DNA of 34,328 bases from contig NKIB01000241.1 in the NCBI GenBank assembly GCA_002256025.1, forward strand, positions 1 through 34,328, written 5' to 3'. Positions 1-34,045 of this stretch are shown piece by piece. The position numbers and the translations under genes are program-made. The stretch comes from Asterionella formosa. Taxonomy: Eukaryota. The notes below the pieces were generated by a model. That model made no database searches. It was not told the DNA's origin and saw only the letters and a program-made list of their open reading frames with translations. Each line of letters opens with the position of its first letter. Position 1 is the first letter of the stretch.

Positions 1-199
1 CAAGATCATTTTGACGGGATCAAGGAAAGTGTGAGAAGTCTTGTTTGGGATTACATGAGAAATCAGGCAAGAACAAGACCTAGATAGACTATTAACAGAG
101 AGCTCACAATATTACAAAGTGTAAAGTGAAAATACGTTTTCAGCTTTAGTGATGGTCTTAAAAGTAAGATCTCTGATATTTCAACTAGACAATTTAACA
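1..199 (+). repeat. 3' part of the 5' LTR of copia A (end inferred)
   Basis: Ends GACAATTTAACA, resembling the verified LTR end of element C (GACCATTTCAACA). It is followed by the same type of palindrome and then the gag ATG. No second LTR is in the window to confirm the end. Confidence 0.6.
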
Positions 200-230
200 C
201 ATTTTAAAACGAACCTACAGGTCTAGAGAC

Positions 231-3200
231 ATGGTTACGGCCGATGAGAAATCAGGTGAAACTGTTTGCTTGATCAAGTTTGATGGAAGCGAAACTGCTT
301 GGCATGAGTGGAGTATCAAGACTCTTCAGCTTGCGAAATCTAAAGGATTTAGGCATGTTTATGCCAAAGACACGAAGCCAATCGACGATGATGCCTATTT
401 GGTGTCTACTGATGATGACGAGAAGAAGAAGTACGAGTTGAATGACAAGGCATATCAGCTATTGATTCTTAGTGTCAGTGGGATTGCATTTGGGATTGTG
501 AATTCTGCCAAGACAGATGATTTGATGGATGGAGATGCTTTTCTTGCCTGGCAGTATTTGGAAGATCGATATGCTCCTCATCAAGTTACTGATTTGATTC
601 AGCTAACAGGTGAATTCAACGATTGTACCTTGGAGAGTACTAAAGCAGACCCAGATGAATGGTTCATTGCTCTCGATAACATCAAGAACAGAATGCGTCA
701 AATTGATACATCATTTGAAAAGAAAGAGGTTGAAGTCATTGCGCACATGATGAACAAGTTACCTAAAGAGTACAGTGAAGTCATTACTGTTATTGAAGGA
801 ATGGGTACTATTACTTTATCAGATTTGAAATCTAAAATTCGTGCATTCTACCAAAGGAAGTTCAAGGATCTGAATACCAACGAGATTGCTTTGTGTGCAA
901 ATGGTAAATTCAAGGGACTTTGCAAGAATTGTGGAAAACAAGGACACAAGGCAGCTGACTGCCGATCCAAGAACAATACAGCAGGCGCAAACAAAGAAAC
1001 GAAAGGCAAAGGTGTCAAATGTTTCAATTGCAACAAGTATGCAGGTCACATTGCTAAGGATTGTCCTAAAGAAAAGAAAGAAATTGGAATGTTTGTTGGT
1101 ATTGTTGAAACGATCGAAATCCATGAAGGAAAGTCTGATACAGATGATGATTTTGAAATATTTGACTTGACTACAAACAACAAGACGTTTTTTGACTATG
1201 AATATGTTGAAGACACAAAGGTCTACACTACATGCGAAGAAACAGAATATGCATTTATTGGAATGACAATTGAAATTGTGGATGAAGAGATCAATCAAGC
1301 ACACCATGCAAGTATCAAAAACAGTGAGAGTAAAATTTGCGCATCAAGCGAGGAAAATGAACATTGGTTAGCTGATACAGGCGCAACCAGTCATATTACT
1401 ATGTGCAATAAGTATATGACAAATGTGAAAGCAGTAAATGTACGCGTTGTTGTAGGCGATGGTAAAGAAGTCATTTGCAAGGAACACGGAGATGTCTGCG
1501 TGCGAAACAAAGTGACCAATGAGACACTCTTTCTTACGAATGTCCTTTATACACCTACCTTTCATAAAAAAAATTATCAGCATTGGTAGTTTTGTACGTG
1601 ATGGTAAATACGAACTTGGTATGAAGCACAACAAAATGACTTTGACAAAAGCGGGAAAAACTGAGACGCTAGATTTCAAACGGAATCATTCAGATGTTTT
1701 GTACTATTTCCAAGGAACTCGTGGAATTTACCCAGGTGGGAGTGATATCTTATCTGCAGAGGTCACCACAACGAAATTGACCAGTATGGACATTAATGAA
1801 GCTCACGCTAAATATGGACATATTGGGAAAGCAGCATTGCGGGCGGGCTACTATGAAATCACTTGGTATCAAAATGACAGGTGTGATGTATACATGTGAA
1901 GGATGTGCGCTAGCTAAGGCTAAAGCAAAAAGTGTTCCTAAAATGACTATGAGCAAGGCTACTCAACCGGGCGAAAGTTTGTGCACAGATATCAGCGGTC
2001 CATATAAAAAGTCGATCTTAGAAAACGACTATTGAATCCTTGTTGTTGATGACTACACCGGAAAATCTTGGAGTTTCTTTGTTAAGAAGAAGTCACAACT
2101 TGCTTCAAAGATTGAAGATTTGTTGACTAAACTCAAAACGGCTGAGTATGTTACCAAGTTTCTCCGTTGTGACAATGCAGGTGAAAACGTCTCAGGTTTG
2201 ACAAAAGTATGCAACAAATTCAATATACAAATTGAGTTTACAGCACCCTACACACCACAACAGAATGGAATTGTTGAGCGAAAGTTTGTAACCATTCGTC
2301 AACTAGCATCTGCAGAAATATTTGCTGCAAAATTTAATGATGAATTTCAAGGTTTACTTTGGGCAGAGGCCATCAACACCAACACACGAATCACGAACAT
2401 TGTGGCCACATCTAATGATGGAAAAAGTGCAGATGAGAAGTTTTACAAAAAAGTTCCAATGATTTATGATCATCTAATGCATTTTGGCAGGATCGGATGG
2501 GTGAAAATTGGTGCTAAGAAAACAAATAAACTCGAAGAACAGGCCATTAAATGTGTGATGGTTGGTTATTCTCATGATCATGCTAGAGACACTTACGAAT
2601 GTTTAACCCTCAGACAAGAAAGATTTTAAATAGTCGAAACATTCGCTGGGCTGATTGGCATGGCCAAACAAGTCCAATCGCAGGTTTGAGGGATTTCAAT
2701 GTGGAAGGGGACACAGAAGTGGTTGATATTCCAATTGATGATGGAAAGCAGGACGAAGATGTTCTTCCTGTTGTGCCACCTATCCAGCAGGATATTGATT
2801 TGGAAACACCTGTTCCAGTTGTGAAACAAACAAGATTTCAGCTATCCGAAGCAGTGGGGAAGTTAGGCGATGAGATCAACAAAGATGCTTCGAAGAAGGC
2901 AAAATTGGAACGAGAATTGAAACGCCTTGACGGTTGCAAAGAAGTTACTGGCAAACGCAGTGCTCGGCGCAACTTACAACTAGATGACAAGAACAAAGGA
3001 TCAATTGAAGAAATAGATTATTCTGAAGCGGCCTATCAAGATGATGATGAACTATTTCAAAGTGAAGAAGGAGTAGAGAGGTTCTATGCATATTCTGCAG
3101 CTCTTGCTTCCGATCCTGGGGAGCCAAAGCATTACAAGGAGGCTATGAAAGGAGCCGAGAGCAAGCAGCGGACCGTTGCTATTAAAAATGAAATCAACAA

Positions 3201-3240
3201 TTTCTACAAGCGAAATGTTTGGAAAATGGTTCCTCGTGAC
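231..3240 (+). pseudogene. Disrupted copia gag-pol polyprotein
   Basis: Copia gag; zinc knuckles CKNCGKQGHKAADC and CFNCNKYAGHIAKDC; protease WLADTGATSH; pre-integrase HAKYGH..CEGC; integrase core; RT N-terminus EPKHYKEAM. Frameshifts near 1570 (poly-A), 1846 and 2597, and an in-frame TGA at 2033-2035 where element C has Trp. Confidence 0.92.
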
Positions 3241-4129: not shown

Positions 4130-4253
4130 TACATATAATTTTTTATGCTGTCTAGATATGATAACATAAAACCAACAGTGCTATATACATTATCATATAC
4201 AAAATCAGAACCGAGTTTGAGTAATAGCATATCTTGTTTTCAATTATACAATT

Positions 4254-4680
4254 ATACAATCCTAAAAATGTGATGATTTACTGTTCCGCTGCAATAGCAG
4301 CAGTCATGAACATATGGTGTTCTGTTGCTTGCTTACTGCTCTGACCATCCTTTTTCAATTTTATGATCATACAATCCTAAAACTATGATGATTTACTGTC
4401 CCACAGCAGTAGCATCAGTCATGAACATATGGTGTTCTGTTGCTTGCTTACTACTCCGACTATCCTTTTTCATTTTTATGATCATATGATCCTGAAACTA
4501 TGATGCTTTTTTTTCGCTGCAGTAGCAGCAGTCATGAACATATGGTGCTCTGTTGCTCGCTTACTGCTCTGACCATCCTTTTTCAATTTTATGATCATAC
4601 AATCCTAAAACTATGATGATTTACTGTCCCACAGCAGTAGCAACAGTCATGAACATATGGTGTTCTGTTGCTCACTTACT
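4254..4680. repeat. Tandem repeat, ~115-bp unit, ~3.7 copies
   Basis: GTCATGAACATATGG recurs at 4303, 4418, 4531 and 4646 (spacings 115/113/115). Confidence 0.95.
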
Positions 4681-5723
4681 ACCTGCAGCGGTATACTGTT
4701 GTATCGTGGGAATCCCCTTTAACTGTGCAATTAGACCAGGAATAGGGGATTAGTGCTGATCGACTGAGACACACTGTCTCGGAATAGTGGACAAAAGACT
4801 ACCAACATTGTTCACGGGAGCCTTTGATCACCATGCCCTTTGAATCGCCTTCCCATACAAGCAAGCTGCACACTTTGGGATTCAAGCCCTCAAAAGCTTT
4901 CTAGGCAGATATCCACTCATGGACATGACATGCAATTGCTCGAAAAGGAAGATGATTCAGTTTATAGTGCTAGAGCAGCAGTGTGGCAGTAGTTGATAAG
5001 GAGTCCTCATCCTCAATCATGTTGCTGGGAAGTTTTGCATCATGAAGTGCCAGCTGTGTTACAAACTCATGAATAGGACCCCGAGAACTGGTGAGCGGCA
5101 GAACCGAATTCGGTTTGTTGTAAGTTTCTGAAGTCTTCTTCCAACTGAGGGTCCGATTATCTTCTAGATCAAAAGGGAGGGAGGCTTTCCTATGTTTTTC
5201 CTCATCCCCAGAGTCCTCGTCATCAGTAACAGTATTCATATTAAATCATAACATGTTAGATTCGACCCTGTCATCTTGCAGAACATTTCGGCAGCTCATA
5301 AACCGCGCGCTTCATTCCTGACGCAGATCGAAAAATAGCCACATTTGTTCCTGGGTCCAAGGGCACGCTTCTTGTCGCATAGTTCCCATGATTCCAATGC
5401 AGTACCACCTTGTCATCATATGCGGCACACCAGGTGCCTTTGATATTCTTATCATTTGCGGTTTGACTCCAATGTTGTGGAGAAAACATCTGGCATGGTG
5501 CCTTAGGGGCATATAGCATGCCTGGAATGACAAAAGCATGGATTCGCCCAGCATCGTCTTCAAACTTCAAATGAACTGTTCTCTTATGAGTGATTAAGAT
5601 GGGGCCTCCAATGCCATTTATCTGAGCTTTCACCTTGCTGGGTGTCCCTATGAAATCAGCAAAACAATTTGTAATGCACTTGGAACAGCAATTGTCGATC
5701 ATGATGGGGAAACTATCTGAGTC

Positions 5724-6641: not shown

Positions 6642-7471
6642 NNNNNNNNNNNNNNNNNNNNNNNNNNNNNNNNNNNNNNNNNNNNNNNNNNNNNNNNNNN
6701 NNNNNNNNNNNNNNNNNNNNNNNNNNNNNNNNNNNNNNNNNNNNNNNNNNNNNNNNNNNNNNNNNNNNNNNNNNNNNNNNNNNNNNNNNNNNNNNNNNNN
6801 NNNNNNNNNNNNNNNNNNNNNNNNNNNNNNNNNNNNNNNNNNNNNNNNNNNNNNNNNNNNNNNNNNNNNNNNNNNNNNNNNNNNNNNNNNNNNNNNNNNN
6901 NNNNNNNNNNNNNNNNNNNNNNNNNNNNNNNNNNNNNNNNNNNNNNNNNNNNNNNNNNNNNNNNNNNNNNNNNNNNNNNNNNNNNNNNNNNNNNNNNNNN
7001 NNNNNNNNNNNNNNNNNNNNNNNNNNNNNNNNNNNNNNNNNNNNNNNNNNNNNNNNNNNNNNNNNNNNNNNNNNNNNNNNNNNNNNNNNNNNNNNNNNNN
7101 NNNNNNNNNNNNNNNNNNNNNNNNNNNNNNNNNNNNNNNNNNNNNNNNNNNNNNNNNNNNNNNNNNNNNNNNNNNNNNNNNNNNNNNNNNNNNNNNNNNN
7201 NNNNNNNNNNNNNNNNNNNNNNNNNNNNNNNNNNNNNNNNNNNNNNNNNNNNNNNNNNNNNNNNNNNNNNNNNNNNNNNNNNNNNNNNNNNNNNNNNNNN
7301 NNNNNNNNNNNNNNNNNNNNNNNNNNNNNNNNNNNNNNNNNNNNNNNNNNNNNNNNNNNNNNNNNNNNNNNNNNNNNNNNNNNNNNNNNNNNNNNNNNNN
7401 NNNNNNNNNNNNNNNNNNNNNNNNNNNNNNNNNNNNNNNNNNNNNNNNNNNNNNNNNNNNNNNNNNNNNNN
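6642..7471. other. Assembly gap (N run)
   Basis: Ns in the sequence. Confidence 1.
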
Positions 7472-9961: not shown

Positions 9962-10122
9962 NNNNNNNNNNNNNNNNNNNNNNNNNNNNNNNNNNNNNNN
10001 NNNNNNNNNNNNNNNNNNNNNNNNNNNNNNNNNNNNNNNNNNNNNNNNNNNNNNNNNNNNNNNNNNNNNNNNNNNNNNNNNNNNNNNNNNNNNNNNNNNN
10101 NNNNNNNNNNNNNNNNNNNNNN
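9962..10122. other. Assembly gap (N run)
   Basis: Ns in the sequence. Confidence 1.
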
Positions 10123-11618: not shown

Positions 11619-13049
11619 TCAAGGAATAATAACACGCATTGTCACTGATGCTGCACTTAACCCCCAAAACAGTTCAAGTTGATCCGCAGTCAACAAGTCC
11701 TCTCCCATCACTCGTTCAAATTTCCACCCCAAATGCGAGTGACAAAAACGGCAATAGGCAATTGTCCACGAGTATCCAGGGAACCAACTATCTTTCGTTT
11801 CCTTACCACCAGTGTACCATAAATGTTGTTCAGAAACGGCCCGTAATGTGATTGTTTGATGAATCACTCCATATTCGTTCACATACGCTCCTGACGTTCC
11901 TTCAGAACCAGCGACGGTAAACATATCTGTAGCAGAAGATAACTTGGTACTGCATAGTTTGCACAAAACATATGTTTGCTGTCGTTCTTGTTCTACCACT
12001 TTGTCATAAATATACCGTAGCCTCTCAACAGTGCCACCGGTTTTCAAAATGTATAGCTTGTCATGTTCTGACAGAGCCATATTGGAGGCCATGTAAAAGG
12101 AAAACGCCATTGGCTCGTCAGATGGTGGATTCAGATTCCAAGGCATTCTCAGCAGGACCGACTTGATCTGGTCGACCAACCTCCATGGCCACACCATCCG
12201 ATAGCAAAAGGAAGGAATAGCTGTCATCATAGACAAGGACGCCATAATGCCATCTTGACGCTGTAGACTGGATGATTGGGAACACATTGGCCTTTGAATG
12301 GGTGGTCGCTTTAATTCATCTTCAAATATTTCTTGTATTTGATAGAATTTCAAACCTACCAGGTCGTCGTCATTGTGGTATCTGCCATCTTGATCTGCAA
12401 CGCCGCCTACAATACGACATCGTCTCGTTCCCAACGCAGTCACAATAAGTTCGTCATATTCATCCACAACTTCTTCGTCACCATGTGTATACGTAACGGT
12501 CACAATGGTTCCAACACGTCCCAACAATGGGTCTCGTTCTATGGACGAGTCTCTTCGAATTCCATTTTCATTCAATGGAATTGGAGGTTCGTCGTCGTTT
12601 ACCAACAAACGTTGGTCTATAACATGCAAGCGAGATGCCCTCCTCGTCCAGCTTGATCGTTGACGATGCGACTGGACACGAGTTGGAATGTGTGTGAAAA
12701 TTCCAATTCGCACCTCCTTCCCCACCTCTATTAGTTGGCGAACATACTGGGCCCATTGTCGATGGACCAGTCGTAATGGCAGCGTGTTTCCTGGAAAGAC
12801 CACAACTCCTGGGAGTTGGAGGACAGGGAGCGTTGTTGTTGTATGATCAGTGACGACCCATCGATGCAATAAAATGTCTTGTGAAACAAAAAGTGAATGA
12901 GAAGCGCCAGGTAAGTAGGAATGATGCGAATAATTGGGACTGGAGTGTTGGTGTTGTGGTAAGGCGCTGGTACCACCATCGTCTAGATTCATCATGACTT
13001 CGTCGTGTTGATCCTCGCCTTCTATCTCTCCTTGATGATTTGTCAGCAT
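11619..13049 (-). CDS. CRBN: Cereblon homologue (Lon-N-like domain plus CULT/thalidomide-binding domain)
   Basis: LPVLQLPGVVVFPGNTLPLRL (Lon N-domain); SFYMASNM; Zn ligands CKLC and CRFC; YVNEYGVIHQT; SWFPGYSWTIAYC..CHSHLGWKF; FWGL. Uninterrupted 476-aa ORF. Confidence 0.95.
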   Translation of the reverse strand: MLTNHQGEIEGEDQHDEVMMNLDDGGTSALPQHQHSSPNYSHHSYLPGASHSLFVSQDILLHRWVVTDHTTTTLPVLQLPGVVVFPGNTLPLRLVHRQWAQYVRQLIEVGKEVRIGIFTHIPTRVQSHRQRSSWTRRASRLHVIDQRLLVNDDEPPIPLNENGIRRDSSIERDPLLGRVGTIVTVTYTHGDEEVVDEYDELIVTALGTRRCRIVGGVADQDGRYHNDDDLVGLKFYQIQEIFEDELKRPPIQRPMCSQSSSLQRQDGIMASLSMMTAIPSFCYRMVWPWRLVDQIKSVLLRMPWNLNPPSDEPMAFSFYMASNMALSEHDKLYILKTGGTVERLRYIYDKVVEQERQQTYVLCKLCSTKLSSATDMFTVAGSEGTSGAYVNEYGVIHQTITLRAVSEQHLWYTGGKETKDSWFPGYSWTIAYCRFCHSHLGWKFERVMGEDLLTADQLELFWGLSAASVTMRVIIP

Positions 13050-14373
13050 GATGGGAGTCTACTGAGACTCAGTGCTATATAAGTTGAGGTGGGTCTGTTG
13101 TCATCATGGAGCACAGCGAGAATTCTTGCTTTTGTTTCAGATGATACCTAGTACTGATGACCACCAGGTACCGTATGAGAGTTCGTTCAAAACGACAACA
13201 CATAGAAGTACGCACCAGGTATACCAGGTCCCAGGTACAAGACGATCACATCATGAGCACGTATGGAACACGGTGCCGTGTTTGAAGGTGCGTATGAAGT
13301 ACCGGTACCAGGTCCTCCACCTGATACCTGTACTAAATGTGTCCCCGGCAACGTACCTTACCACTGGTACGGACTCTGATTTGTGACGTAACAAAACATC
13401 AATTTCTATGAGACGCATGGTACATACTACGTTGTATTTGAGTACCGGTTCAGTTGTGTTCACGACTGACGTGATAATTACCAGGTATACAAATACAACA
13501 GCATACTACATGAATAATTTAGTTTTAAGGTCCTTCGCATTCCTCCTACCGGTACACATGTTGTCTTCGCCTTCAAATATATACTGGCATTCCAAGATAT
13601 ACTTTTGTTTAGCACGTACTGGCATGTCCATCAAAAGACTTGCATCTTTTTTTAGTGCACTGCAATTTCTTTCCAACATCAATGAATATAGAGTCCACAA
13701 CAACATCTTCAAGGCAAATCATTGACATCACATGGAGCACTTGTCATGTTGGATCATGGAATTGTGATGCCAGGGCAATAACTCCTTCGAATTCCTAACT
13801 TCATGTAGAAAGTATTCTATGTAAACATTGTCCCTCTTACATTTTCTGACAGTCCAACAATCTACCAACACGATGGACAGTTTAGAGGACAATGAGAAAT
13901 TTTGCTTTGAAGATCCCTAGAATTACTCTATTTTAGTATACTGATGATCAAACCAAATATTGCTCTTCAAACAGCATCAATCCAATTTCATTGCTGACAA
14001 TAGTTGGCTCATTCACCATGATGCCAACCATGATTAAAACAGAGGGATAAAACTCTTGCAAAGGAAGTCAACTAAAAAGGAAAAGTGGATGATCTAAAAT
14101 AATCAATTCTTTAAATAAGCTACATGACATTACAGCAGGGGACATCGAAGGATAGCTAATTCCGCCAGAAACAACAAGCACAGTTCTCCATATGCATGTC
14201 TGACTTGATGATGTGTCAGTCGCACATGATATGTGGAACGTCTCAGGTTCACGTAGTTCTTGTACCAAGGTAGAACAACTACGTCTTGAAAATAAAATAA
14301 GGTAGTCTAATTGAAGGATTGCAGTAAAAGACGGTTTTTCTAGAAGGAAGAAATTGCTAAATCTCGTCTCATT

Positions 14374-15445: not shown

Positions 15446-16290
15446 CTCGTGACGGATGGAAATTTTGCCCCGGTAAGTCGTCTAATGGCATGTCCTGTGT
15501 GCCAATGGTTATTTAAGAAATATTTTCCTTTTCTTTTCAATATAGTCGAATATTTTAACTTCTCACGACCCCCCTCTTTCCAAGGCGGAACCGCCGAAGT
15601 TGGTGGTACCTGGTACCATCATGGCAACTTGCATGCTGGTTTGTAGCAACAAATTGATAGGTCCATAATGCTTGCTTTTGCCAATGATTACAAATAATAC
15701 AGCTACTGTTGTGAATCAAGGAGCAGTAGATGCATTGATTATCACCACAAATTCTATATTTGTAAATTCATTTTCTATGAATATATAGAGTGAGCGCATT
15801 GTTTGTCTTCCTAACAAATGGTGACATCAGTAGATTTTTGGATATGGCTGGACACCTCATAGGACAGCAGGCAAATTGGCTTCCATGTGTGTCTACCTGC
15901 ACCTAACAGCCTCCTTCCTATACAGCAATCCCAAATCGCTCCAGTCTCTGAGCGAACATGGTGATGTTGAATCAAAGAGGATACACACCAGACTCCATTG
16001 CTGAGATTTTTTCCTCATCACTCTTTCTGTATGTCTTCATGCTGCACGAAATCGCAAATTGTGCCTAGTACTTCAGTAGGTTTATGAAAGATGACAGATC
16101 ATAAGAGCAAGGACATTCCAGCAATGACATTTGACAATCAACAGTTAAGGTGTCAAGGATTGTGACAACTCTGACACCAGCTGCAATGGTGGGCTTACCA
16201 TCTCCTCCACCACAATCATTGCCTTTCTGACTAGCAAGCCTCCACAAAAGCTCTATCCTCCAAATATATATTATGTAGTATCCAAATGTC
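15446..16290. mobile_element. Terminal segment of a probable DNA transposon, starting CTCGTGACGGATGGAAATTTTGC
   Basis: 15446-15603 and 16112-~16290 align with the reverse complement of 32710-32876 and ~32515-32696. Adjacent to the 3' end of transposase relic copy 2. Confidence 0.7.
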
Positions 16291-21200: not shown

Positions 21201-21828
21201 CCAATCCTTGGGTCGTTAATGACATAGGAATGAAATGCAATTTAGCTTAGTATGCATTCTTAGGGAAAGAAAGAATGAGACCGGAATCAGGCCTTGAGAT
21301 GTGCATATGGAATGATATATTGAATCTACATTTGCATTTTAAAATATCCTGCGTTACAATAGCGGTGATATCCAACCTGTAATTATCCTGCAAATAACCA
21401 AAGTTATTCAGGTAATGATTGATGTAAGACATATTCAATGTGCTGTCGCTCATAAATATATATATATGTATGTATATTATTAAAATCAAAGCATTGTTGC
21501 TATTGTCGTACAAACTTCTGTTAAGGCGATCTGTTCAGCATTCTGCTGGTTTTTCAGGCACATCGGCCACTAACTGACCGACAGGATTCATGACCACTAA
21601 AATTTCCTGGGCAGATTCATGAAAGTTGGCAGGTATGGCCCTTGGCACAGTACCCTAAACAGACATCATCATAGGGTTAACCCATGGATTTGCTTGTATA
21701 AAACATGCACAGAAGAAAAGCATGAATAGGGTTAGCTGTGTTAGTATGATAATTTGCTCCGCATAGAATTTCTACACCAGAGGAACATGAACAGGAAAAG
21801 GGTTAGTAGTGTTAGTAATGTTAACTCA

Positions 21829-22237
21829 TGTCAAGAATATTAGCCCGAGTCACATGGATTGTGGATTCGCTTGTAATCAAACGAGTCGAATAATGCATTG
21901 CCACGTCAATCAGCTGTCTAACGAGATCAAAGATTGAAGATTTCTATGGAAATGTTAAGTGGAAAATCGAGGAGAGTCTTTGAACGGCTTTGCAGGAAGC
22001 AAAGATGCATGGAAAGGAAACATTTAGTTTAGCTTATAATTTAATTTGAGTTTTAGATTATCAACCGAGGAAACAGTGTGTTAATTGACAGGAAGGTCAA
22101 TAAGTCTATCTAGCAGGAAGGCTGGAAGCAGGGACAAGAAGAGAGAAAGTAAGAGGTACTAGGTAGTACTACGATCACGTAAGAGTCTACGTGAAGAGAG
22201 ACCCAGCTCGCAGGAAGGAGTACGGACCATTTCAACA
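21829..22237 (+). repeat. 5' LTR of copia C (409 bp)
   Basis: TGTCAAGAAT...TTTCAACA; direct repeat of 26705-27110 with about 21 substitutions and one 3-bp indel by manual alignment. Confidence 0.97.
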
Positions 22238-22273
22238 CGCTTTAAAGCGGATAGGTTTGAAAGGGTACTCAAG

Positions 22274-25200
22274 ATGGGAATTGACGACGAATCGTCAGGA
22301 GTGCGGTTGCCAACATTTGATGGTAACGATGCCAAGTGGCACATTTGGAAAGCGAAGTTTGTGGCCTATGCCTGCTACAAAGGTTTTGAAGGAATCCTAA
22401 ATTGAGATGAAGTATCACCAGGTGAGAGAGATTCAGCTGGAGTGAAGATTGTTCCGAGCGACAACGATGAGAAGCGTGCGAAACGAAATAATACGGTTGC
22501 ATATGCAAGTTTGATTATGGCATGTCAGAGTGGACCATTTGGATACGTAAATGCTGCCAGAAGTGAAGAGTTCCCCAATGGAAATGCGAAGGAAGCGTGG
22601 GACAAGTTAGTTTCTACGTGCGAGTCAAGTAATATGGCAAATGTGATTGCCTTGTCAGGTCAGTGGACAAAATGCACGATTAACGAGAATGAGAACCCCG
22701 ACATTTGGTTTGTGGAGTTGGATAGAATTCGAGAACGATTGAGCCGTACGAGCTCCGCAATTTCGGATGGTGCCTATGTGGCTCACGTTGTCAACAACCT
22801 ACCGGAAGTCTACAAGAGTTTGGTGGTTGGAAAATTTGGTCTCGCGAGCTCCGAGCTCACGATCCAAGAGGTCAAGAAGAATGTACGCGACTACCGGTAT
22901 TATTACAATTTGTATGTGCGTGACAAAACCAAGACAAGTAAGAATAGCGAGCAGGCCTAGCGAGCAGGCCTTCTTTTCAAAAAGCAAGTTTAATGGAGAC
23001 TGCAGGAAGTGTGGCAAGTATGGCCACAAGGCAGTTGATTGCCGAAGCAAGGGCAATACTACAGAAAAGAGAGAATTAACTCCCGAGCAACGGAATAAGA
23101 GAAAGAATGCGAAGTGTTATAATTGCCAGAAGATGGGGCACTATGCCAGTGAGTTCAACAATCAACAAAATGTACCAATCAAACAGAAGGGAGAAGACGC
23201 CAACACCACTACGCAAGGAATGTTCGTGGTGACGTGTATTGAGGCAAGGTACAACGAAGAGGTAAATCATACGTGCATGCATAAGGACCATTGGCTACTA
23301 GATAGTGGTGCTACGGTACATATATGCAATGATGAGCGCATCATGGAGGACAAGCGCGCAGTGCATGAAACTGTTCTTGTGGGAAATGGCGCAGCAATTG
23401 TTGCGACCGTATCAGGCACGGTGACCCTTACGACGACAGACAAAGGAAAAGTGTTGAAACTCACCAATGTGCTCTATGCACCGGAGTTCACGCAGAGCAT
23501 CATCAGCATTTCGAGAATTATTGACAAGGGAATCAAAGTTATGTTTGACGATGATAAGATGACAATCAGAAACAACAACGGATTTTTGATCTGCAAACGT
23601 GATGAAACGAGGACAATTGGTGCAATGTACCATGTGCAAGGAACGCCTATTCTAAAGGAAATGGTGTTGGAGGTTGAACAAGAAAGCGAGAAGCCAACAC
23701 AACAATCTATCGACTATGATAAAGAAGACAAGAATGAATGGACGAAAGTCGACGAAAAGAAGTAAACGACGAAAGCGAAAGATGAAACGATCAAGAAAAG
23801 AAACGCGAACGAATATAATGATGTGATTGTGGAAATAAATGAAGCGCACGAAATGCTTGGACATGTGGGGGAAAAATGTCTTCGTGAGACATCGAAATTA
23901 TTTGGGTGGAAACTTGTTGGAAATTTAAAGGTGTGCGCAGGATGCACAGCAGCCAAGGCGAAAGCACGCGCAGTACCCAAGATGACGCAAGAGAAGGCTA
24001 CGACACCAGGAGAAAGACTGTCTATTGATATTAGCGGACCCTACTCAAAATCCGCTGTGGGAAATCAGTATTGGGTGATGGCCGTGGACGATTATACAAG
24101 GAAACGCTGGAGTTATTTTATCAAGAAGAAAAGTGACATCAGAACTGTCATTGGAGCGTTACTCACAAAACTTGCCGGTGCAGGACATAAGACTAAATTT
24201 TTCCGATGTGATGATGCAGGTGAGAACTCCAAGCCACTAAAGAAAGTATGTGAAAACCAAGGTGTCAAGATGGAATTTACGGCACCTCATACTCCGCAGC
24301 ACAATGGTGTTGTGGAGCGTGGTTTTGTTACAGTGCGTCAGAGAGCACTTGGTATGATGCTAAGTGCGAAGTTTACAGATGAATATCAGGGGCTATTGTG
24401 GGCAGAAGCTGTACATACTGCGACAAGATTGACAAACAGTACAGTGAATTCAGTGACTTAGAAGAGTCCTGATGATGTGTTCTATGGAGAAACGAATACA
24501 AGGCGGCCCTACAAGCTCTACAGGCAATTTGGACGTGTTGGTTGGGTTACTATAAGAGAAGGTGTCAAGAAATTAGATGCACGTTCCATCAAGTGTGTCT
24601 TTTTGGGATACTCAGATGACCACTCTCAAGATACGTATTGCATGTATAATCACGAGACAAATACATAAAACCAGTCATCAAGCAACCAACAGGATACGGA
24701 GATATCAGTACGAGAAGATAATGAAGAATTGCATGACGATTTTTATGACAAGTTCGAACCTCGAGAAGTGTCCGATAATGAAGATGAAGATGATGACAAG
24801 CAAGAATTGGGGAGGAAAACTGAACAATCAACTAAGATAGATGGTACTACGAAATACGAAGATACAGGTACCAATACCCCAATTGTGAAGGCTAAACGTG
24901 CGGAAAGTGCTCAGTCTAAGCAAGCGAAGTTGGCACGTGAAATGCGAAGATTGGACTCATCGTTCAATCCTACGAGTACGAAAATTGTGAAATTTTCAGG
25001 AGATACTGAGATGCCTGGTGTTATCAAGGAGGATGACATGAAGGAAGTTACAAAGAATACACAGATGAATCTTGTGTACAACGCAAGTCTGGCTTCTGAT
25101 CTAGGATTGCCAACAAGCTACAATGAAGCAATGGCAAGACCAGACAAGAAAGAGTGGATCAAGGCGATCAACAAAGAATATGAAAACTTCCAGTCGAGAG

Positions 25201-26813
25201 GAGTGTGGAAAGTTGTCAAGCGTGACACTGTTAAAAAGCGAACACTAAAAACGAGATGGGTGTTTCGAATTAAAGAAGATGTGGTAACCGGGAAGAAAAT
25301 TTACAAGGCAAGATTGGTCGTGAAGGGATATGAGCAAATCCCAGGTATTGATTTTACTGAGACATTTGCTCCAGTCGCAAGCGATGCGACAATCAAAACG
25401 GTAGTAGCAGTGACGATGTATAACGGTTGGCGAGCAGAGGCTATAGATGTGGAAGCAGCATTTCTAAATGCTGATGTCGATGAGAACATTTAAATTGAGC
25501 CCCCTCAAGCTTTGATCAGAGTCGATTCCGATACACATGTTTGCAAACTTGTGAAGGCTATGTAAGGGATAGTACAAGCTCCACAATGCTGGTCCAGGAC
25601 GTTTGCGAAATGTGTCACCAATAAACCAGGTATGACAAAGAGCAAGATCGACCCTATGTTATTTATGCACCGGAACAAGGATGGACAAATTGATGGTCTA
25701 CTTGTTAATTACGTGGTTGACGGTATTGTATGTGGGACTCCAAGTGCAGTGGAGTATATGAAAAATGTTATCAAGGAAGATTTCAATATTACCAAGCAGG
25801 GTATTGTACAGAAACACCTAGGAGTGGAATATGCTTGGAAAGAGGACAAGTATGGTGAATACTGGGAGGTGCAGATGCAGAAATTTCGTATGCAACTTCT
25901 ACACGAATACGAGAAGCTGACCGGTATGAAAATTCAGTCATACACAACGCCGGGCGTACCAGGAAAGACATTGAACAAAAATGACGAAAAAGTCATTATG
26001 GAAGGAGAATATCGAAAAATTGTGGGCAAGTTATTATGGTCTACAAAGAAGGATTCGCCGGACTGTGCAAATGCGGTTCGGGAATTATCGGCTCATTTAA
26101 GCTGCCCAGGTGAAGAACAATGGCATACAGTGGCAAGAGTCATTGGTTACCTATCCAATATGGAGGATAGAGTTCTCAAGTTACGTAAGCCAAAAGAGTT
26201 AAGAGTCATTGCCTACATGGACAGTGACTCGGCTGCTAATAAGGTTAACAGGAAGAGCGCGACTGGCTATCTTGTAACTATTGGCGGGGCACTTATCAGT
26301 TGGCAGTCGAAGGGACAACAAACGGTTACGCTGTCCAGCACGGAAGCCGAGTATGTGGCGATGTCCCAGTGTGAACAAGAGATCAAGTTCATAGCAATGC
26401 TACTGAATGAGGTTACTGGTGGTAAGGTCATGTTACCAAGTATCCTACGAGAAGACAATACAGGAGCTATTTTTATCGCGAAGAATCAGCAAATCGGAAC
26501 CTGGACAAAACACATTGATTATAAGTATCATCATGTAAAGGACATGATTGAGGATGAAGAATTGGAAGTCATTTTTATAAGGTCGGAAGATAATTTTGCG
26601 GACATTATGACCAAGAACGTGAAGGAACAGATTCATACGAGATTGTCCGAACCAGTTCAGAGTGGAACGATGTTACAGCCTCTTGAGCGTGGCAATGGGG
26701 AGGATGTCAAGAATATTAGCCCGAGTCACAAGGATTGTGGACTCGATTGTAATCGAACGAGTCGAATATTGCATTGCCACGTCAATCAGCTGTCTAACAA
26801 GATCAGAGATTGA
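22274..26813 (+). pseudogene. Copia C gag-pol, ancestrally one ORF, now with several stops and a frameshift
   Basis: MGIDDESSGVRLPTFDG..; knuckle CRKCGKYGHKAVDC; WLLDSGAT; integrase; RT KARLVVKGYEQIPGIDF, DVEAAFLNA, YVDD mutated to YVVD; RNaseH LSSTEAEY..EDNTGA..ADIMTK. Stops at 22403, 23763, 24459, 24666, 25491 and 25563. A 13-bp duplication at 22945-22970 shifts the frame. Confidence 0.95.
26697..26704 (+). other. Polypurine tract of copia C
   Basis: GGGGAGGA immediately before the TG of the 3' LTR. Confidence 0.85.
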
Positions 26814-27110
26814 AGATTTCTAAGGAAATGTTAAGTGGAAACTCGAAGAGAGTCTTAGAATGACTTTGCAGGAAGCAAAGATGCATGGAAAGGAAACATT
26901 TAGTTTAGCTTATAATTTAATTTGAGTTTTAGATTATCAACCGAGGAAACAGTGTGTTAATTGACAGCAAGGTCAATTAGTCTATCTAGCAGGAAGGCTA
27001 GAAGCAGAGACAAGAGAGAAAGTAAGTGGTACTAGGTAGTACTACGATCACGTAAGAGTCTACGTGAAGAGAGACCCAACCCGCGGGAAGGAGTACGGAC
27101 CATTTCAACA
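26705..27110 (+). repeat. 3' LTR of copia C (406 bp)
   Basis: Direct repeat of 21829-22237. Confidence 0.97.
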
Positions 27111-27294
27111 GCTAAAGTCACCTCCCCGGGTACCGGTATGTATTTCTAACCCTAAAATGTATGTTCATAACACAGCGGTACGGTACCGGTCCTCCTCCCA
27201 CGACTAAAGCGAACGGACAAAATACGCGGTGTTGTTACTGATCCAAAATATTAAAGACGATCCATACACATAGGTCGTCTCGCAAATCAATGCA

Positions 27295-32514: not shown

Positions 32515-32876
32515 TAGGGTAGTAACAATATCATCTGTTTGGTGGATAGAGCGTTGGTGGAGGCTGCTTGCTTGTCAGAAAAGCAAACGGTTGTGGAGGC
32601 GAAGGTAAGTTCATTGCGGCTGGTCTCAGAGGTATCACAATCCTCGTCTCATCGGTGCCTTCATTGTTGATTGTCAAATGTCATTGCTGGAATGTCTCTT
32701 AACGAAATGCCAACTTGGGCAGTTTCCATCAGCCCAAGAAGGGGTCGTGAAACGCTAAAATATTCGACTATAGAGAAAAGTCAAGAAATGAAAATGAAAA
32801 ATTCCTTAAATAAGCATCGGCCTACATGACGTTTCGGTAGACGACATACCGGTGCAAAATTTCCATCCGTCACGAG
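32515..32876. mobile_element. Second, internally deleted copy of the CTCGTGACGG element end, inverted relative to 15446
   Basis: Ends ...CAAAATTTCCATCCGTCACGAG at 32876; 32665-32696 is a 32/32 reverse-complement match to 16112-16143. Confidence 0.75.
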
Positions 32877-33142: not shown

Positions 33143-34045
33143 ATGCAACCCGCCCTTATGCCAGCCTTCGAAATGCAATGTGACAGAAGTGAACCCGCCC
33201 TTATGACAGCCTTCGAAATGGAATGTGACAGAAGTGACGACATCGTTTCGTTTTTGCTCTTCTCTTTCTTCAAGATTCTTCCTAGCATCTTGTTCTGCTT
33301 GGGTTTGTATGCTCATCGCCAAGTTGTCGCGTGGGTTGGTCAAGAAGAAAAGGATATTCCCGAAATTCTGATCCATACATCTGGCGGAAATGAGAAAGAA
33401 TATGCCAAACTGAATCATAAATACATCGAACAAGAAACAGTGCCAAATTGAGCGTTGTTTGTTCTCTGTGGCATGGCTCCTGCTGTCTTCTTTGTCTGGT
33501 CTGGAACAAAATACGGACCCAAGGGTGATGAGTATGCAAATCTGTGTTCTCTATTTCGTTCAATAGGTTCGACTTGGTTCGTCACCGATGTTCTCAAGGT
33601 GCACTGTGCTCGACCCAGGCCTCACATATACCAAAGATTGGGTTTTGATATAAAGACCAAGAAATGTCAAGAAAAAGATCGACGACAAATTCAGGATGCG
33701 TTCATGTCGTTCCCATCGGGCCATGCCAGTCTCTCTTTCACCACCATGGTGCGCGTATCATTGGAGCTGACGCAAATTTTACAAAAGTGGCCATTACATC
33801 GGCTGGCCTGGACTCCCGTGGTTTTGGCCTTGTATATTGCAAGGACTCGAGTTCTAGACCACTGGCATCATCCTGAAGACATCATTGCTGGTGCTGTCCT
33901 CGGTACTGTGTTTGCTTTGTTGGATGATTCGATTGTGGTTTATTCAATTACTATCTTCCTATTGATTCTTGTCGACCAGCTCATCAATAAAGAGATTAAA
34001 CGCAACCTGAAAAAAACAAAAATAGATGGCCTGCAGATTGCATGA
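33143..34045 (+). pseudogene. PAP2-family lipid phosphate phosphatase interrupted by one in-frame TGA (33449-33451)
   Basis: Motifs C1 KVHCARPRP, C2 SFPSGHAS and C3 TRVLDHWHHPED are intact. The two ORFs are in the same frame and join as ETVPN*ALFVL. A 45-bp tandem duplication lies at the N-terminus (33147-33236). Confidence 0.85.

Follow-up and report, generated by a model that had tools for sequence, protein, structure and literature searches.

Two Ty1/copia long terminal repeat (LTR) retrotransposons, here called elements A and C, lie within a 34,328-nucleotide contig of Asterionella formosa (NKIB01000241.1 of assembly GCA_002256025.1, forward strand; hereafter the window), and in both of them the position of the primer-binding site is taken by a 12-nt palindrome. 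Judged from sequence comparison, this palindrome is a clade-wide feature that is selected for full symmetry. It is most likely a primer site that is independent of transfer RNA (tRNA) and at which the element's own RNA would serve as the primer. The window itself is one contig of a fragmented eukaryote assembly totalling 68 Mb.

The assignment of both elements to Ty1/copia follows from the order of their domains. Pfam matches run in the order gag, protease (PR), integrase (IN), reverse transcriptase (RT) and RNase H (RH) as far as integrase/SH3 in element A and as far as RT in element C, and the complete gag-PR-IN-RT-RH order is present in the family-A record P0003. A related family-A copy (L184) has a full-length LTR of 462 nt with TG...CA ends, and the polypurine tract (PPT) of the family, GAGATCAGGGAGGG, stands before the 3' LTR. 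The PPT and the acidic residues of RNase H, RT and integrase are ordinary. Element C is flanked by ACTCA (21824-21828) and GCTAA (27111-27115), which do not form a matching 5-bp target-site duplication; the element may be a recombinant of two insertions.

The palindrome of element C is a perfect CGCTTTAAAGCG that directly follows ...TTTCAACA, while the window copy of element A reads CATTTTAAAACG directly after ...ATTTAACA. The original prediction, made from the window alone, had placed the LTR end of element A by analogy, and that end can now be located at window position 199. A query with the LTR (window 20-199) gave 30 matches, 17 of which diverge directly after AACA into unrelated flanks and 13 of which run on into the 12-mer and leader, and in the metagenome contig L185, where a single family-A element has both of its LTR ends, these part right after ...AATTTAACA. 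Since the break points and the paired LTRs agree, the 12-mer is flush with the LTR. The family consensus is also palindromic, with a perfect CGTTTTAAAACG at 29 of 40 family-A junctions, differences at terminal CpGs only at five and other differences at six. The one mismatch in the window copy, G>A at palindrome position 2, had been ascribed to CpG decay, and it can be regarded as such because 13 of 178 CpG positions (7.3%) are changed relative to the natural copy L185, against 2.2% elsewhere. The LTRs of A and C are, as had been stated, otherwise dissimilar, having no alignable stretch (best blastn match 12 nt), and the gag N-termini are 30% identical. The spacing of 19 nt between palindrome and gag ATG holds for element A but not for element C, where it is 24 nt.

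The palindrome recurs throughout the genome. A search for the gag motif F-D-G-x4-W-x2-W, which takes no account of the palindrome, found 256 matches where the control found four; 50 of the 256 were read, and 48 of them are gag, belonging to nine families (A, B1-B4, C, D, E and F, with one copy each for B4 and F) whose gag proteins are about 30-75% identical. Loci L095 and L159 matched the pattern and were discarded as not being gag. Each of the nine families has the palindrome, or a decayed form of it, directly behind TTYAACA or a near variant, the copy L144 being without the 5' half. Four palindrome types are found in this genome: CGTTTTAAAACG in A, CGTTTATAAACG in B1-B4, CGCTTTAAAGCG in C, D and F, and CGCTTGCAAGCG in E. 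At junctions anchored on both sides (families A, B1/B2/B4, C, D and E), counted with assembly duplicates included, 149 of 220 are perfect, 44 differ at terminal CpGs only, 25 differ in other ways and two are unrelated. The chance level can be gauged from the 16 perfect 12-mer palindromes among the ~33,300 non-N positions of the window. Imperfect family-A copies are more diverged than perfect ones (median 3.3% for nine copies versus 0.9% for 21). Finally, the pattern TTYAACACGNNWNNWNNCG gave 188 matches against 14 for its reversed control, and 97 of 100 among the matches listed are perfect palindromes.

Related junctions are present in eukaryotic contigs that have been binned into prokaryote genomes. 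Here a 41%-identical element (L200) carries CGTTTTAAAACG, the 14-mer CGTTTTTAAAAACG stands at the site in L199, L293 and L299, and CGATAATTATCG does so in L281, L290 and L305; for all of these the LTR end was deduced from TTYAACA and from where the site lies, downstream of RNase H or ahead of gag, and not from paired LTRs. The pattern search for these relatives fixed the CG ends, and the palindromic matches plus one other (six loci) were followed up, so that non-palindromic relatives could be missed. Among 79 loci in the prokaryote-genome contigs, those of at least 3 kb were scanned, and two close relatives showed the junction. A distant Copia element in the same contig set (L216) has the tRNA-Met site of the fungal GalEa elements, and the palindrome is therefore not a generic feature of LTR ends. 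A scan of metagenomes returned 12 loci, all from families already present in this genome, along with one unrelated gag and no new palindrome type; the viral contigs held no gag relative, one RT locus without a 5' end and five pattern matches without gag nearby. Two candidate junctions were dropped, as the CA plus palindrome in L238 lies in an internal repeat and L280 lies inside pol. Among the matches listed, the nearest named eukaryote relatives of the RT-RH region are from Fragilaria crotonensis (two) and Fistulifera solaris (one), at 43-45% identity. As separate observations, eukaryotic Copia contigs sit in many prokaryote species-representative genomes (L197-L275), apparently as contamination, and this genome has one GalEa-type tRNA-Met site, CA followed by TGGTAGCAGAGC (L326, G000:C2802:7629-7643, minus strand), with no protein match to the palindrome clade nearby.

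The two halves of the site change together. Covariation of positions 3 and 10 between A and C, the observation from which the original prediction started, is confirmed, and the pairs 5:8 and 6:7 covary too. Over five 12-nt types the pair 3:10 occurs as T:A, C:G and A:T, 5:8 as T:A and A:T, and 6:7 as T:A, A:T and G:C, with none broken, while the CG ends and T4:A9 are invariant; a sixth type, the 14-mer, has a symmetric 2-nt insertion. Re-dealing the 3' letters keeps every pair with a joint shuffle probability of 2.2e-4, uncorrected for relatedness. The gag tree resolves two clades only, A/B/E (support 99/98) and C/D/F, and the A/B/E clade alone contains three palindrome types. The wider covariation, together with the lack of any match beyond chance in an incomplete tRNA set, supports the earlier view that selection acts on self-pairing and not on a fixed tRNA sequence. 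That view can be refined: in a hairpin the covarying positions 5-8 would lie in the loop, so their covariation means selection on the full-length palindrome, as an intermolecular duplex or for annealing at second strand transfer, and not on a simple hairpin.

What, then, could prime the minus strand at such a site? For tRNAs, 63 of 3876 candidates were scored, giving 61 distinct sequences of which 27 are on nuclear-type contigs, and against this incomplete set the palindromes reach at best 5-8 contiguous bases or 8-9 of 12, values that lie inside the range of the shuffles (means 5.7 and 8.7). The longest matches are organellar, the longest of all being that of type C to eight contiguous bases of organellar tRNA-Asp, which 10 of 200 shuffles equal. 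No type starts with TGG, the complement of the tRNA CCA; all start with CG. A Tf1-type complement in the LTR, sought up to 500 nt upstream in eight families, was matched at best at 8-9 of 12 positions (p 0.29-0.92). A downstream copy resembling the CHSeq2 of GalEa gave at best 6-9 of 12 in the same number of families and, although C, D and F have partial resemblances, reached significance only in D (p 0.02, one of eight, 2 nt away). Family A is also represented among RNA-library contigs of four environmental runs; three of the four span the junction, no variant being listed.

A primer has to end in the complement of its site, and a palindrome is its own complement; the simplest source of a primer would therefore be element RNA cut 3' of the palindrome. 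The palindrome would then be the minus-strand primer-binding site and the primer would be the element's own RNA, and it is quite possible, if far from assured, that this RNA is supplied in trans by a second genomic RNA paired through the palindrome. The two genomic RNAs in a particle would pair over the 12 bp, with arms of U5 and leader extending the duplex on both sides, and one RNA would be cleaved where the palindrome ends on its 3' side. The element's own RNase H would probably make this cut, as in Tf1, where the enzyme reportedly cleaves an RNA duplex. The new 3'-OH would face the first base after the partner's LTR, such that RT could copy U5-R at once. In standard LTR replication the plus strand copies the primer and then anneals to the minus-strand copy. 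Here plus-strand synthesis would copy the primer into the reverse complement of the site, and second strand transfer would depend on the annealing of this sequence to its minus-strand counterpart. Symmetry over all 12 positions would be needed because both the priming and this annealing require a palindrome. Position, conservation and covariation of the site are observed, its duplex and flanking stem come from folding predictions, and dimer, cut and priming are the steps that we infer. If they are real, copying of the primer into the plus strand would mirror each mutation and so give a built-in route to compensatory change. In family D the 12-mer is constant but the next 4-6 bases vary strongly and contain indels, a pattern that could mark an imprecise second strand transfer.

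Predicted energies separate the duplex from the hairpin. The 12-bp homodimer is calculated at -11.8 to -21.1 kcal/mol and the hairpin at -0.1 to -2.5 kcal/mol. Modelled monomers of all eight families tested have a short palindrome hairpin (3-4 bp), which mostly caps a longer predicted stem formed between U5 and leader. The offset of this stem is symmetric (9+9 or 7+7 nt) in A, B1, B3, B4 and E, and in most others the stem starts 1-2 nt from the LTR end. U5 is predicted to pair better with the leader of its own family (-11.3 versus -7.8 kcal/mol across families; permutation p 5e-5, 15 families). Tf1 is reported to need a U5-IR-like structure. On these models, trans priming by the second genomic RNA appears more likely than priming by fold-back. 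In the latter, an RNA cut 3' of the palindrome would fold back into a 4-bp stem with a tetraloop, kept in place by the stem of U5 and leader, and prime its own U5, the full palindrome being needed only at the second strand transfer. We regard fold-back as unlikely. Its geometry is that of the trans arrangement and its hairpin is the one predicted in every family tested, but in isolation the hairpin of types A and B contributes only -0.1 kcal/mol, after the cut the leader arm sits on the other fragment, and the primers of reverse transcriptases are to our knowledge far longer than a 4-bp stem. In its favour, a proposal in the accessible part of PMC3601003 makes hairpin priming the ancestral mode in LTR elements.

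Slightly less probable again is that the palindrome is a dimer-initiation or packaging signal, comparable to PAL1/PAL2 of Ty1 or a retroviral dimer-initiation site (DIS), and that priming takes another route. The position at a stem apex is DIS-like, Ty1 dimerises through palindromes in its 5' untranslated region (PMC6844567, in part), and central covariation would fit any intermolecular duplex. Against this, the palindrome starts at the first base after the LTR, where the 3' end of the primer must sit, in families about 30% identical in gag; this leaves no room for another site, and no other primer site was found in the folds, the complement searches or the incomplete tRNA set. The dimer signals of Ty1 and retroviruses, moreover, exist beside a tRNA site. 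Binding of a palindromic tRNA fragment or small RNA of the host, akin to the half-tRNA priming of Osser, Bianca and FunCo1, seems improbable. LTR-flush half-tRNA sites are known in Copia, according to portions of PMC6317226 and PMC5445492, and the tRNA set was incomplete, with type C reaching its eight bases of tRNA-Asp. The best tRNA matches nevertheless stay within the shuffled range, the longest are organellar, and six palindromes, one of a different length, would need six primers. An even-centred palindrome also misfits the 7-nt anticodon loop. Very improbable are a role at the DNA level, in binding a dimeric protein such as a host factor or the integrase, and a neutral remnant: dimeric proteins do bind palindromes, and all five 12-nt types have the same CG ends and T4:A9, but half-site sequence and length vary with symmetry kept, the site lies outside the LTR and hence not at the integrating end, and conservation of the site despite unalignable LTRs excludes a neutral remnant.

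Copying of the primer into the plus strand would be expected to leave mirror-image variants within a sub-lineage, and one candidate is a mirror pair of family-A copies from a rare sub-lineage, CGTTATAAAACG (C12297) and CGTTTTATAATG (C14258 and C7331, one locus), in which T>A at position 5 in one faces A>T at position 8 in the other; a further difference at position 11 of CGTTTTATAATG is CpG decay. Both copies have two rare LTR variants in common, something seen in only 2 of 351 copy pairs. The pair is suggestive only with regard to primer copying. Six family-E copies with C>T at position 1 were set aside as an unfair mirror test, four of them sharing one upstream context with a truncated LTR. 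As a separate matter, L327 (G000:C12297, PPT shown) and L337 (G000:C13812, PPT apparent) have a PPT followed by LTR, palindrome and leader, and represent tandem or three-LTR arrangements or assembly joins.

Several observations count against trans priming by the element's own RNA. The mirror pair is a single post hoc case, each LTR variant common to its members is also found in one other LTR, and the LTR of C12297 (L327) has RT/PPT before it and only ~55 nt of leader after it, so that a recombinant or assembly join is possible. Five non-CpG variants recur twice on the same side with no mirror (position 7 in A, 3 in C, 5 in D, and 7 and 8 in E). A central mismatch occurs in two separate insertions of one family-E sub-lineage, from which it follows that the site tolerates a single mismatch. 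Taken family by family, the flanking stem reaches significance in six of 15 only, and the cognate U5-leader pair is the best of its row in four of 15. Only energy separates trans from fold-back priming, and cutting one RNA would cost half of the packaged genomes. The contigs from RNA runs show neither ends nor transcription, which leaves the cut and the primer as inferred steps.

How does this site compare with those of known systems? The closest likeness is to fungal GalEa (Donnart et al. 2017, PMC5445492), a Ty1/copia group that similarly has no tRNA site and whose LTR junctions bear a palindrome instead of a primer-binding site. In the accessible text of that paper the palindrome, termed the Conserved Hairpin Site (CHS), is CTGATCAGT or CTAATTAGT plus the last A of the LTR; its variants change in pairs, it was hypothesised to be a substitute primer-binding site, no complement was found in the LTR, and no model fits. 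The site of the diatom clade differs in being 12-14 nt long, wholly outside the LTR and with CG...CG ends. It lacks the CHSeq2 complement that GalEa has 12-41 nt downstream, a family-specific U5-leader stem being predicted to flank it instead. The proteins differ as well, P0003 having two CCHC knuckles, KGRIVV, HVDD and GPICA where GalEa has C2C4C4H, KSRLVI, QTDD and CQPEA. Self-priming without a tRNA is described for Tf1/Tf2/Tj1 (also Tf1/sushi and Tcn1), whose primer is cut from their own RNA at an RNA duplex (PMC4600332 and PMC6317226, both in part). In Tf1, on the same partial sources, the 5' end of the transcript primes at a non-palindromic complementary site, and such a copy in the LTR was not found in eight families of the diatom clade. 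The palindromes of Ty1 and the retroviral dimer sites are alike in being self-complementary near the 5' end, with a hairpin-to-extended-duplex geometry, but they act beside a tRNA primer site, whereas the diatom-clade palindrome occupies the primer site (PMC6844567, in part). The CoDi Copia elements of diatoms share the PR-IN-RT-RH order (Maumus et al. 2009, PMC2806351), and the main text, as far as accessible, makes no mention of tRNA, palindrome or priming. A literature search that left subscription papers, GyDB, Repbase entries and the Maumus supplements outside its range turned up no mention of such a palindromic site for priming in Copia elements of diatoms. Three primer types are listed for LTR elements, with Tf1-type priming predicted for plant TAR Copia (Neumann et al. 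2019, PMC6317226, in part). We tentatively suggest a mode distinct from whole-tRNA, half-tRNA and Tf1-type priming, in which packaged RNAs pair at a palindromic site and one, cut at the palindrome end, primes the other, thereby making dimerisation and priming one step. If true, this mode would also explain the CHS palindrome of fungal GalEa.

Table 1. Coordinates of elements A and C in the window.
Feature	Positions	Strand	Basis or remark
5' LTR of element A, 3' part only	1..199	+	LTR matches and paired LTRs; contig start cuts the rest
U5 arm (CTAGAC) of predicted U5-leader stem, element A	185..190	+	9 nt upstream of palindrome; z -3.4 versus shuffles, computed on copy L185
Palindrome at primer-binding-site position, element A	200..211	+	LTR-flush; G>A at 201 in window copy; family form CGTTTTAAAACG
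Leader arm (GTCTAG) of predicted U5-leader stem, element A	221..226	+	9 nt downstream of palindrome
gag-protease-integrase and start of RT, element A	231..3240	+	Decayed, several frames; 3'-truncated near 3240, without 3' LTR
5' LTR of element C	21829..22237	+	409 nt, TG...CA
Perfect palindrome CGCTTTAAAGCG, element C	22238..22249	+	Flush with 5' LTR
Inner part of predicted U5-leader stem around palindrome, element C	22230..22262	+	TTTCAA 22230-22235 / TTGAAA 22257-22262; predicted on copy L101, p 0.05 versus shuffles
gag-PR-IN-RT-RH, element C	22274..26704	+	Several frames; PPT at end, flush with 3' LTR
3' LTR of element C	26705..27110	+	406 nt, 94% identical to 5' LTR; palindrome does not follow

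Elsewhere in the window, a stop-free frame of 479 codons on the minus strand (11619-13058) has LON substrate-binding and Yippee domains and represents a homologue of cereblon (chains of the human protein matched at E 1.8e-32), and a plus-strand frame at 33452-34045 is for a PAP2-family phosphatase. Units of ~115 nt, some 96% alike, form a tandem array at 4169-4682, and two diverged repeat copies (15446-16150 and 32658-32876) lie in inverted orientation 17 kb apart. Runs of N at 6642-7471 and 9962-10122 (991 bases) produce false long open reading frames and false palindromes. The assembly also holds a plastid contig, with open reading frames for dnaB, a psbV-like protein and rpl11/1/12, named by reading their translations; this contig and the named RT-RH relatives point to a diatom.

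LTR elements are defined in part by how their reverse transcription begins, and a palindrome at the primer position is on record once before, in fungal GalEa, without a mechanism. The diatom clade offers many young copies, natural compensatory variants, the central pair among them, and an RNA of 90 nt suited to in vitro tests, which makes the question posed by the CHS testable. Annotation pipelines that require a tRNA site will miss elements with a palindromic site. For the elements themselves, independence from host tRNA would bring freedom from silencing by tRNA fragments.
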